64,000 nt of DNA from a bacterium (lineage in GTDB: Bacteria > Krumholzibacteriota > Krumholzibacteriia > G020349025): assembly GCA_031362565.1 (NCBI GenBank), contig JANLSU010000067.1:32001-96000 (forward strand), in the 5' to 3' direction. The translations under genes were made by a program, and so were the position numbers. The stretch's first letter is position 1. Each line of letters starts with the position of its first letter. The notes below the pieces were generated by a model that worked only from the letters and a program-made list of their open reading frames with translations, was not told where the DNA came from and ran no database searches. Below, piece by piece: positions 13,115 through 15,328 of this stretch.

Positions 13115-13840
13115 ATGCAACTGAAGTACCGACGCATCCTGCTCAAGATGAGCGGCGAATTGCTGGGCGGCGCCGCGGAATCCGGCATCAGTGTGGAGCG
13201 CGTGCACACCCTCGCCGAGGATTTGCAGGTGCTGCACCAATTGGGTGTGCAGATCGGCCTCGTGGTGGGTGGCGGCAATATTTTTCGGGGCTCGATCGGC
13301 GAGACGCGCGGCATCGACCGCGTGTCGGGTGACCACATGGGAATGCTGGCCACGGTCATCAATTCGCTGGCCGTACAGGACGCGCTCGAGAAGCACGGCG
13401 TGCCGGCCAGCGTCATGTCGGCGCTGCGAATCGAGTCGGTGGCCGAGCCGTACGTGCGGCGCGACGCGCTCCGCCGCCTCGACGCCGGCCAAGTCGTCAT
13501 CGTCGCCGCCGGCACCGGCAATCCGTTCTTCACGACCGACACGGCCGGCGTGTTGCGCGCCATCGAGCTGGGTGCCGAGGTGCTGTTGAAGGGGACCAAG
13601 GTCGACGGCGTCTACGACGACGATCCGGCCAAGAATCCCGCCGCCAAACGCTTTAACACGCTGACGTATCGCGAAGTCCTCAACCGTGATCTCAAGGTCA
13701 TGGACGCAACGGCTATTTCACTGTCCCGGGAAAATGAACTGCCGATCATCGTCTTCGACATCAGCCGGAGAGGCGACTTGCTGCGCATCGTGCAGGGCGA
13801 ATCGGTAGGCACCTGGGTCGGGAAGGGGGAGAACACATGA
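13115..13840 (+). CDS. pyrH: UMP kinase
   Basis: RILLKMSGE...GGGNIFRG...GTGNPFFTTDT...KVMDATA. Confidence 0.97.
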   Translation: MQLKYRRILLKMSGELLGGAAESGISVERVHTLAEDLQVLHQLGVQIGLVVGGGNIFRGSIGETRGIDRVSGDHMGMLATVINSLAVQDALEKHGVPASVMSALRIESVAEPYVRRDALRRLDAGQVVIVAAGTGNPFFTTDTAGVLRAIELGAEVLLKGTKVDGVYDDDPAKNPAAKRFNTLTYREVLNRDLKVMDATAISLSRENELPIIVFDISRRGDLLRIVQGESVGTWVGKGENT

Positions 13841-14400
13841 GCGCTCAAGATCTCGTCCGCGAAGCTCAGGACCACATGGAAAAATCACTCGACGCAACCA
13901 AGCGCGAGTTGTCGGGCTTGCGCACCGGCAAGGCCTCGGCGGGCTTGCTCGACACCGTCAAGGTGGACTACTACGGCACCCACATGCCGCTCAAACAGAT
14001 CGCCAACGTCTCGGCGCCCGAAGCCCGGCTGCTCACCGTGCAGCCTTTCGACAAGGGCGCCGGCGCCGCGATCGAGAAGGCGATCCGCGACTCGGGCCTG
14101 GGCCTCAACCCGCAGTCCTCCGATGGCGGCATCATTCGGATTCCGCTTCCGACCTTGACCGAAGACCGGCGCAAGGAACTCGCCAAGGTCCTGCGCGGCA
14201 TGGTCGAACACGGCCGCGTCGCGGTGCGCAACATCCGCCATCACACCAACGACCACCTGAAGCAGCTCGAGAAGGAGGGCACGATCACCGAGGACGAGCA
14301 CAAGCGCGAAGCCAAGCGCGTCCAGGACATGACCGACGCCCACATCAAGAAGCTCGACGACCTGCTGAAGGTCAAAGAAGCCGAGATCATGGAAGTCTGA
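13837..14400 (+). CDS. frr: Ribosome recycling factor
   Basis: LRTGKAS..LLD.VKVDYYG...GLGLNP...LTEDRRKEL...AVRNIR...KEAEIMEV. Confidence 0.97.
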   Translation: MSAQDLVREAQDHMEKSLDATKRELSGLRTGKASAGLLDTVKVDYYGTHMPLKQIANVSAPEARLLTVQPFDKGAGAAIEKAIRDSGLGLNPQSSDGGIIRIPLPTLTEDRRKELAKVLRGMVEHGRVAVRNIRHHTNDHLKQLEKEGTITEDEHKREAKRVQDMTDAHIKKLDDLLKVKEAEIMEV

Positions 14401-14461
14401 TCCCCCCTTTGGGGGCAACCTCTGGCGTTTGTCTCCCAAACGTCTCGGATGCCGCGGGTCG

Positions 14462-14487
14462 GGAACAATCCACCCCCCCTGTCCGTT
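14462..14487 (+). promoter_or_regulatory. Putative ECF-sigma promoter
   Basis: GGAAC-N17-CGTT. The predicted start site coincides with the 5' end of the structured element at ~14492. Confidence 0.5.
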
Positions 14488-14490
14488 TCA

Positions 14491-14787
14491 AGGTGTGACG
14501 AGACCGCCAGCGCGGTCGCGAGACAGAGCGGGAGCCGATCGACCGGGCCAAGTCCAAAGGACGAACGCGGGCCCAGGCTGCGGATCCCCCTCCGAGCAGC
14601 CGAGCCCGCGTCCCTTGGATCCGGACGAACGGTGCCCCCCGGTTCTGTCTCAACCCAGGTCGTAGCCTGCCCATGTCCCCGGCAGGAGCGCCCGGTGAGC
14701 CGTGTTCGGCGCCTCGTCGACCTCACCTCTCCTGATGGAGAGTCTCCGCATGAACGGGCCAGCGACGTCGCTGGCCCCGTTTCTTTG
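14491..14787 (+). ncRNA. Candidate novel structured ncRNA (~295 nt)
   Basis: Non-coding gap with nested stems, including a closing stem 14491-14502/14713-14728 and a long arm 14520-14651. Flanked by an ECF-like promoter and an intrinsic terminator. Confidence 0.55.
14752..14787 (+). terminator. Rho-independent terminator
   Basis: AACGGGCCAGCGA/TCGCTGGCCCCGTT hairpin followed by TCTTT. Confidence 0.8.
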
Positions 14788-14861
14788 GTACGCCCCGAAT
14801 TGCCACTCCGTGCGGCCGGTGTCCGAACCCCGCCTCGGGCGCCGCCACCCTGCCTCGTGCC

Positions 14862-14889
14862 TTGACACTGGGTCGCCGCGGAGTAAACT
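14862..14889 (+). promoter_or_regulatory. sigma70 promoter of nuo operon
   Basis: TTGACA-N16-TAAACT. Confidence 0.7.
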
Positions 14890-14902
14890 ATCGAGTCGGT
14901 TT

Positions 14903-14924
14903 GTTTGAGAAATTTTTCTCAAAC
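14903..14924. promoter_or_regulatory. Palindromic operator, Rex-like
   Basis: GTTTGAGAA-ATTT-TTCTCAAAC, compared with the Rex consensus TTGTGAA-N4-TTCACAA. Lies just downstream of the -10. Confidence 0.6.
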
Positions 14925-14977
14925 TCACCCAACTCGAAGTACCACAAGAACTTGGGCGCGTGTGGGGGAGACGGCAC

Positions 14978-15328
14978 GTGAGCTATCTGCCGCTCGCTTT
15001 CGTGATCGGGCTCGCGTGCCTGGTGCCGGTGCTGCTCTTTGGACTGCAGCGGCTCCTGGCGCCACGCCGCCCGAATGTCGCCAAGCTGGAGACTTACGAG
15101 TGCGGGGCGCCCATCATCGGCAGCCCGCACCAGCGCCAGCCGGTCAAGTTCTACATCGTTGCCGTGCTGTTCCTGCTCTTCGACATCGAGACCGTGTTCC
15201 TCTTTCCCTGGTCGGTGCTCTATCGCCGGCTCGGGGTCTTTGGTCTGGTCGAAATGGGCGTTTTCCTCGCGGTGCTGGTGTTCGGCCTGGTCTACGTCTG
15301 GCGCAAGGGCGCCTTGGAGTGGGAATGA
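14978..15328 (+). CDS. nuoA: NADH-quinone oxidoreductase subunit A
   Basis: GTG after [17 protein letters not shown]...[21 protein letters not shown]...WRKGALEWE. Confidence 0.96.

Follow-up and report, generated by a model that had tools for sequence, protein, structure and literature searches.

A probable non-coding RNA gene with a predicted Y-shaped fold and cytosine-rich loops between frr and nuoA in Candidatus Krumholzibacteriia

The stretch of DNA analysed here, which we call the window, is 64,000 nucleotides (nt) long and comes from a member of the Krumholzibacteriota (assembly GCA_031362565.1, contig JANLSU010000067.1, positions 32,001 to 96,000 of the forward strand). By Pfam, its genes follow the order rpsB, tsf, pyrH, frr (13837-14400, RRF), a gap of 560-580 nt, nuoA (from 14960 or 14979, Oxidored_q4) and more nuo genes. 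Inside the frr-nuoA gap, at 14462-14786 on the plus strand, lies an element that is very probably a real non-coding RNA gene encoding a transcript of about 290 nt. On our best reading it represents a new RNA family without an Rfam match, of a kind that is already known, the small RNA (sRNA) with C-rich loops. A search of the window genome and a relaxed hairpin pattern run over the family both give one copy per genome. A preliminary description, made from the letters and open reading frames (ORFs) of the window, had proposed a structured RNA behind an extracytoplasmic function (ECF) sigma promoter at this place. The features of the predicted gene are as follows.

14462-14466, plus strand: -35-like element GGAAC, ECF-type, kept as GGAAY in all ten copies known
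14484-14487, plus strand: -10-like element CGTT, its GTT (14485-14487) kept in all ten copies
14491-14519, plus strand: closing stem, 5' strand, with AGGU at 14491-14494, GACGAG at 14497-14502 and an extension or local hairpin at 14502-14517
14520-14651, plus strand: arm 1, a long interrupted stem whose apical helix GGCUGC/GCAGCC closes the loop 14582-14595 with CCCCCUCC
14658-14693, plus strand: arm 2 hairpin, CCUGCC/GGCAGG, with a C-rich loop at 14672-14680 (CAUGUCCCC)
14694-14723, plus strand: closing stem, 3' strand, with CUCGUC at 14713-14718 and ACCU at 14720-14723
14724-14742, plus strand: 3' hairpin, CACCUCUCC (5' strand, resembling the 16S rRNA tail) with the Shine-Dalgarno-like GGAGAG and the loop UGAU
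14756-14786, plus strand: intrinsic terminator, a 9-bp G+C-rich stem at 14756-14777 followed by CGUUUCUUU

Does the element belong to any family already described? Searching the whole window with cmscan against the 4227 families of Rfam release 15 gave no match at the gathering score, and between 14350 and 15000 the only matches at E <= 10 were two at chance level, Scr3202 (17 bits against a cut-off of 52) and MIR1437. At the element itself there was no covariance-model match to 6S RNA (RF00013), 6C RNA or RsaE/RoxS, nor one to Ms1, provided that release 15 includes that family. Five ORFs overlap the element and none of them has a Pfam family. A small protein was considered and rejected: GGAGAG is followed by an ATG at 14750, whose frame of 52 codons extends across the terminator and the downstream nuo promoter and lacks a counterpart in the other homologues, whose GGAGG-like strand has, by eye, no start codon behind it. 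The window genome (G000) and L045, which have the closest pair of full copies, differ by insertions and deletions of 1, 1, 4, 2, 3, 2 and 1 nt. The element had first been described as lacking both a credible ORF and a known RNA family, and both statements stand, with no conserved ORF, no Pfam family and no Rfam match at the gathering score. A literature search on small RNAs of Candidatus Krumholzibacteriia, made by taxon name, found no regulatory RNA described and returned CsrA work only.

A BLAST-type DNA search with the whole element against 40 relatives gave no matches, the homology being too weak for such a search; we therefore followed synteny, and relatives were found through it and through covariance models. 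Nine homologues were obtained, three in genomes of the same family (G002, G003 and G004) and six on metagenome contigs. In G002 frr is followed by a spacer of about 470 nt, which shows 73-74% column identity when aligned to the element. We then searched 151 genomes of the class with R1, a covariance model of the element's 3' part; it matched G003 with 40.6 bits and, weakly, G004 with 20.3 bits. Both copies immediately precede the nuo promoter, and their homology is plain on reading. R1 gave matches at E <= 1 in 30 of the 151 genomes, and of those inspected (G071, G001 and G004) only G004 proved homologous, the others being unrelated or coding-like; the remaining weak matches (E >= 0.03) lay outside this inspection. 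A strict pattern, the promoter word plus the apical hairpin of arm 1, retrieved six metagenome contigs, all six of them homologues, and three records from a one-genome-per-species collection. A second model (R2), built from seven sequences and applied to the same 151 genomes, placed only the four family genomes at 65-93 bits, scores that arise by construction because the same sequences trained the model, and gave 30.9 bits as the next best. At E <= 0.05, R2 matched eight of the 151 genomes; inspection took in G068 and G087, including the 30.9-bit match, and found coding-like sequence, with G142 and G024 outside its scope.

How far, then, does the RNA extend? The relaxed hairpin pattern was present in four of seven family genomes and in none of the three of genus g2, and homologues occupy the same site in three of the six other family genomes. 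In G001 and G005 frr leads directly to the nuo promoter without the RNA, and in G003 another ORF follows frr. As judged from these sequence searches, the RNA appears so far to be confined to four of the five genera of one Candidatus Krumholzibacteriia family, together with environmental contigs.

Folding 14488-14790 on the plus strand gives -163.4 kcal/mol, against -127.8 +/- 5.0 in 100 dinucleotide shuffles (z = -7.14, none of the 100 as good); the minus strand of the same interval gives z = -5.15. Every helix listed in the preliminary description was located, the complementary segments being AGGTG (14491-14495) with CACCT (14724-14728), GACGAG (14497-14502) with CTCGTC (14713-14718), GACCGC (14502-14507) with GCGGTC (14512-14517; P2), GAGACAGAGC from 14520 with GTTCTGTCTC to 14651, GTCCAA (14552-14557) with TTGGAT (14615-14620), GGCTGC (14576-14581) with GCAGCC (14596-14601) and CCTGCC (14666-14671) with GGCAGG (14681-14686). 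Comparison modified three of the proposed helices while leaving their complementarity intact. The outer helix has an alternative register, AGGT/ACCT (14491-14494 with 14720-14723), which is the one supported by L045, the closest full-length relative. P2 is kept only in near relatives, as a local hairpin in L045 and, by eye, as a similar one in the truncated L040, the region elsewhere being a long closing stem. P5 (GCGCC/GGCGC) is not predicted in L045.

The same plan is recovered in all eight full-length homologues, each folded alone: a closing stem, a two-arm junction, a small hairpin and a terminator. Across the family the closing stem reads GGGA..GACGRG with CUCGUC..UCCC plus an extension. 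Arm 1 measures 59-132 nt in the eight folds and arm 2 measures 33-48 nt, and G004 carries an extra 13-nt hairpin. The tip of arm 1 is always GCUGCG, a loop ending in CCCCUCCG, and CGCAG(C); this apical hairpin does not vary among the four homologues found independently of the pattern, each of which has CCCCUCCG in its loop, and CCCCUCC occurs in the arm-1 loop of all ten copies (these four included). The loop of arm 2, which lay outside every search pattern, is 7-10 nt long and has a C-rich end in eight of eight (CCCC(C) in seven, CCUCC in L041), on a stem that differs in every lineage (CCUGCC/GGCAGG, CGCAG/CUGCG, GGUC/GACC, GCGACCGCC/GGCGGUCGC). A third conserved hairpin, CCUCCC/GGGAGG, follows the closing stem. 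At the 3' end the intrinsic terminator first proposed was confirmed as a G+C-rich stem-loop, paired in all seven aligned homologues, with the U-run CGTTTCTTT behind it; a terminator scan also rates it terminator-like. We observed further that the stem GGGCCAG/CUGGCCC is the same in seven of eight homologues despite their diverged arms, more than termination alone requires. The plus-strand z-scores of the eight homologues, by dinucleotide shuffling, are -6.3, -2.7, -2.7, -2.8, -3.5, -4.3, -1.85 and -6.8, and in every case the plus strand is at or below the minus strand. Comparison shows an RNA predicted to fold as a Y, in which the two ends form a closing stem that carries one long and one shorter arm, each tipped by a loop with a run of cytosines.

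Are the variable helices kept by selection on pairing? MAFFT fails to align them: whole-length MAFFT with RNAalifold on eight sequences recovered only three sequence-conserved hairpins, and on arm 2 alone it gave no pairs. For this reason an anchored flank-swap test was used, in which sequence anchors from alignments A7 and A10 set the windows. Each 5' flank was paired with its own 3' flank and with those of the seven others, the duplex energies were calculated, and the sum was compared with 40000 random assignments, among which the identity assignment itself is expected about once. The results were as follows.

Arm 1 outside the apical helix, 30-nt windows: own -27.0, swapped -20.4 kcal/mol; 3 of 40000 assignments as low
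Arm 1, 20-nt windows: own -18.0, swapped -14.3 kcal/mol; 23 of 40000 as low
Arm 1, 40-nt windows: own -35.8, swapped -28.6 kcal/mol; 6 of 40000 as low
Closing stem: own -30.3, swapped -23.4 kcal/mol; 12 of 40000 as low
Arm 2, 16-nt windows: own -18.1, swapped -10.7 kcal/mol; 0 of 40000 as low

The variable helices co-vary. An earlier swap test, in which the fold had chosen the limits of the arms, was biased towards own flanks and is not relied on. With the closest full-length pair, G000 and L045, RNAalifold retains 66 base pairs, four of them changed on both sides; among these changes are GGU/ACC to GGG/CCC in the outer helix and A-U to G-C at the foot of arm 1. In seven sequences the 3' hairpin and terminator have 84 of 84 cells paired and five of 12 pairs with compensatory changes, a result reached by none of 500 shuffles, in an alignment that was fitted to the model and in which most compensatory changes come from one sequence; with slid partners, 43-67% of cells pair. 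Taken separately, the four core pairs of the 3' hairpin are always paired in the seven homologues, and so are the eight stem pairs of the terminator, five of them with compensatory changes.

What would start such an RNA? The GGAAC and CGTT first noticed ahead of the fold are present, with 18 nt from GGAAC to GTT, and they are kept in ten of ten copies as a two-box unit, -35 GGAAC/T and -10 (c)GTT at fixed spacing, at the 5' edge of the element. In the four genomes found without a search pattern (G000, G002, G003 and G004), GGAAY is followed by exactly 18 nt of unconserved sequence and then GTT; in the six metagenome homologues found by pattern the promoter word is present by construction. Because the spacing is fixed while the spacer sequence is free, we take this to be a two-box protein site and not an RNA signature. 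The base before GTT is C in three of the four GGAAC forms and T in all six GGAAT forms. ECF promoters of Corynebacterium glutamicum and mycobacteria, in a different phylum, have an identical promoter word: PMC10012870 gives GGAAT-N18-19-GTT for experimentally defined sigmaH promoters of C. glutamicum and GGAAC-N17-18-cGTT for sigmaE/sigmaH, and it describes sigH as rarely autoregulated. Transcription is predicted to start at about 14492-14496. An independent ECF-type promoter is thus the likely driver of the RNA; the one piece of evidence that suggests sigma dependence and stress control is the promoter word.

The genome encodes about 30 ECF-type sigma factors (34 profile matches). We looked among 30 of these genes for an autoregulated one with the same promoter word and found none convincing. 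A separate observation is a GGAAT-N18-GTT 68 nt ahead of a gene for 601 amino acids in the same genome (C27:8614-8682, minus strand; L079), the product of which has DsbD_N, DsbD_TM and thioredoxin-like domains. This dsbD-like gene may belong to the same sigma regulon as the RNA; as a single case, it fits a regulon for thiol or envelope stress. The other top sites of a position-weight promoter scan, the matrix of which was biased in that it included the first bases of the RNA, lay at a toxin-antitoxin-like pair (by eye), a GDSL-like hydrolase and unnamed ORFs, and no clear regulon emerged.

In a sequence index, the stretch or parts of it occur in 20 public runs of 16 studies, six of the runs being RNA libraries. 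For four metatranscriptomes, which belong to three studies (freshwater, soil twice, and ice), the contigs were aligned to 14200-15100. Each run yielded one short contig, 95-99% alike and lying nearly entirely on the element.

X4: covers 14505-14748, contig of 246 nt
X7: covers 14424-14751, contig of 372 nt
X12: covers 14540-14749, contig of 215 nt
X20: covers 14528-14759, contig of 234 nt

Such contigs show neither strand, ends nor level, and DNA can occur in RNA libraries. The RNA expected by the preliminary description is matched by contigs from four metatranscriptomes, and its expected 5' end is not matched by X7. No contig falls on 14789-15100, which includes the start of nuoA, a gap that is not evidence of silence. 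Over frr there are brief contig pieces, most of them below 90-95% likeness and continuing into unlike sequence, which derive from other organisms. The X7 contig on the element has a depth of 22.3, against 3 for the sole frr piece of similar likeness in that run. Three changes are common to all four contigs (G14610A, C14614T and an extra G after 14558), and we read them as preserving an alternative helix, AAGGGA/UCCUUU. The upstream changes in X7 fall beside and inside the promoter spacer and leave the two boxes untouched. All four contigs end at 14748-14759, just ahead of the terminator stem, which could reflect a processed 3' end or an effect of coverage. Past 14751 the X7 contig continues into what we take to be Illumina adapter sequence, and this junction hints at a molecule ending at 14751, a few bases before the terminator stem. 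One contig of X20 (depth 16.7) joins 14601 to 14754, skipping 152 nt, with only 26 letters on the shorter side; it may represent a relative with a deletion or an artefact of assembly.

The surroundings of the RNA include a second control region, that of the nuo genes.

14862-14889: nuo promoter of sigma-70 type, TTGACA-16-TAAACT, about 75 nt past the terminator of the RNA
14905-14922: perfect palindrome TTGAGAA-N4-TTCTCAA, between the nuo promoter and nuoA

The palindrome is nearly unchanged ahead of nuoA in every family genome or metagenome contig that has the site. It is similar to the Rex operator, which reads TTGTGAA-N4-TTCACAA. The genome encodes a Rex-type protein (PF06971, 60.6 bits, contig C61) and has a second Rex-like site at C123:22376, which carries one mismatch. 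Complex I (nuo) seems likely to be under NADH-sensing control. In G006 the interval from frr to the nuo promoter, where the RNA lies in other genera, holds an unrelated and near-perfect inverted repeat with arms of about 30 nt and a spacer of about 70 nt (L009:2059-2230). In G003 a 388-codon ORF lies between frr and the RNA (L012:1850-3100), and by eye its product has a GDS motif like that of SGNH/GDSL hydrolases.

What might the RNA do? The reading we favour, tentatively, is a base-pairing sRNA that would mask G-rich ribosome-binding sites through two, perhaps three, anti-Shine-Dalgarno loops. CCCCUCC contains the anti-Shine-Dalgarno core CCUCC. RNA polymerase with an ECF-type (group 4) sigma factor would start at GGAAC-N18-GTT, and the G+C-rich hairpin with its U-run would stop transcription at about 14786, giving an RNA from about 14492 to about 14786. 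Its exposed C-rich loops (..CCCCUCCG and ..UCCCC) would base-pair with the G-rich Shine-Dalgarno regions of its mRNA targets and keep the 30S subunit from binding there. The RNA would then act as the repressing arm of a stress-sigma regulon, like 6C, RoxS/RsaE and the sigmaE-dependent sRNAs. Of the two functions first suggested, that of a base-pairing sRNA fits the C-rich, anti-Shine-Dalgarno-like loops; control by stress is suggested by the promoter word only.

Each of these known systems shares part of its design with the new RNA. 6C RNA of Actinobacteria (B11) is short and consists of two hairpins. It likewise belongs to a G+C-rich host and has a terminator, and hairpin loops with conserved cytosine runs are found in both, a likeness in working and not of membership. 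The new RNA differs in its size of about 290 nt, its closing stem, three-way junction and extra CCUCCC/GGGAGG hairpin, and its ECF-type promoter; there is no sequence or covariance match to 6C, and the phylum is unrelated. RoxS/RsaE of Firmicutes pairs several C-rich motifs with Shine-Dalgarno regions, and RoxS has links to redox and respiration and is under Rex control in Bacillus. The new RNA resembles it in its C-rich motifs and adjoins a nuo operon with a Rex-like operator; it is much larger, has another fold and no Rfam match, and the operator is that of the nuo promoter, not that of the RNA. MicA, RybB and MicL, the sigmaE sRNAs of Enterobacteria, form the repressing arm of a stress regulon, are Hfq-dependent and use 5' or A/U-rich seeds. 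Here the likeness is that an ECF-sigma promoter is the only recognisable control element of the sRNA gene, whereas sequence and fold are unrelated and the sigma dependence of the new RNA is a prediction. Like 6S and Ms1 it is structured, 200-300 nt long, paired at its ends and seemingly abundant; it differs from them in fold and in conserved elements.

Several observations weigh against the loop-pairing sRNA as proposed. Genus g2, with three genomes that are 100, 97 and 86% complete, yielded no copy of the RNA. Loop duplexes against 6032 crudely defined start regions were no better than those of reversed seeds (means of -14.9 for the real seed and -14.6 for the reversed one, and of -10.7 and -11.4 kcal/mol), and nuoA ranks only 497th and 571st of 7662 as a target of the loops. 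The cytosine run of arm 1 is partly paired in four of the eight minimum-energy folds, and the z-scores of four homologues are modest, from -1.85 to -2.8. The invariant helix closing the arm-1 loop and the terminator stem exceed what a pairing seed needs, and a protein partner would fit them too. The promoter word on its own is not rare, GGAAY-N17-19-GTT occurring 666 times on both strands of the genome, and its weight comes from its conservation; GGAAY-N16-19-GTT stands upstream of only one of the 30 ECF sigma genes examined, itself a below-cut-off match. Finally, the X7 contig already begins some 70 nt ahead of the predicted start. This argues for a degree of read-through from frr or against the 5' end as predicted, and processing or DNA in the library may also account for it.

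Could the element instead belong to one of its neighbours? As a cis-acting leader or attenuator of the nuo operon it is hardly credible: nuoA does lie 3' of it in six of the eight contexts with a readable downstream flank, but it has its own terminator about 75 nt before a separate, conserved nuo promoter and operator, in L042 no nuoA follows the RNA within about 600 nt, and in genus g2 the nuo promoter and operator are kept in the absence of the RNA. It is also quite unlikely to be derived from a 3' untranslated region, that is, cut from a read-through transcript of rpsB-tsf-pyrH-frr with GGAAY-N18-GTT conserved for another reason. In five contexts (G000, G002, L041, L042 and L043) frr is the immediate 5' neighbour, the hairpin that follows frr has a weak U-run, and the X7 contig reaches 14424, upstream of the motif. 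Yet in G003 and L045 frr is not the immediate neighbour and both RNA and promoter motif are kept (the 5' flank of G004 was left out of this comparison), the genera show no conservation in the interval from frr to the motif, constant spacing of two boxes around an unconserved spacer is the mark of a two-box protein site, and the depths in X7 for the element and for frr differ as given above.

The remaining alternatives accept an independent RNA and differ on its partner. A sponge or scaffold, in which the invariant hairpins would bind proteins specific for C-rich single strands and the variable arms would only space them, is somewhat unlikely. It would account for the invariance of stem sequence, and not of loops only, in the apical helix of arm 1, for the terminator stem common to seven of eight homologues, for fixed tips on arms of 59-132 nt and for the lack of a target signal above the reversed-seed control, and, having been assembled from four RNA libraries, the RNA seems abundant and stable; against it, no candidate protein gene is linked, the neighbours being housekeeping and varying, and C-rich loops of precisely this type are proven pairing seeds in 6C RNA, where they bind several mRNAs (PMC6486639). 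A decoy of the 16S rRNA 3' tail is very unlikely. Here three CCUCC-type copies would titrate Shine-Dalgarno sequences in bulk, or the hairpin that resembles a Shine-Dalgarno:anti-Shine-Dalgarno duplex would dock on the 30S subunit. The 16S rRNA of this genome has GAUCACCUCCUUUCU as its end, and in five of eight homologues CACCUCC is common to that end and to the 5' strand of the 3' hairpin (in the window, UCACCUC); CCUCC also occurs in the arm-1 loop, loop complementarity to start regions is generic (mean of about -15 kcal/mol over the 6032 sites), and contig depth in environmental RNA is high. The 7-nt match is short, however, and the tail-like strand is paired within its hairpin to a GGAGG-like strand, C-rich motifs are common in a genome of 64% G+C, and reversed seeds bind start regions equally well, so loop complementarity is not specific evidence. 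If true, such a decoy, with two or three anti-Shine-Dalgarno copies of which one sits in a preformed helix, would be a stress-induced brake on general translation initiation, standing to the ribosome as 6S RNA stands to RNA polymerase. Binding of RNA polymerase itself, in the manner of 6S or Ms1, was the other function first suggested for the element. It agrees with a size of about 290 nt, near that of Ms1, and with high structure and seeming abundance in RNA libraries, but it is highly improbable because a canonical 6S RNA lies elsewhere in the genome (C15:1885-2063, L003; 71.4 bits against a cut-off of 46.4) and because eight of eight copies fold as a Y-shaped three-way junction with conserved apical loops, not as a rod with a conserved central bubble; nor is there an Rfam match to either family at the element at E <= 10 (Ms1 included if in the release).

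If the element is a base-pairing sRNA with anti-Shine-Dalgarno loops, the C-rich-loop sRNAs would gain a large, Y-shaped, multi-loop form. Independent of the exact function, it would be a well-supported new RNA family, with a conserved promoter, co-varying helices and presence in RNA libraries, and its alignment could serve as an Rfam seed. Since it was not found in genus g2, the RNA appears to be dispensable there. Related sequence in RNA libraries from soil, freshwater and ice could make it usable as a marker of activity or stress for these bacteria. Its promoter would offer a handle on an ECF-sigma regulon in an uncultured phylum, in which the same word stands ahead of a dsbD-like gene.

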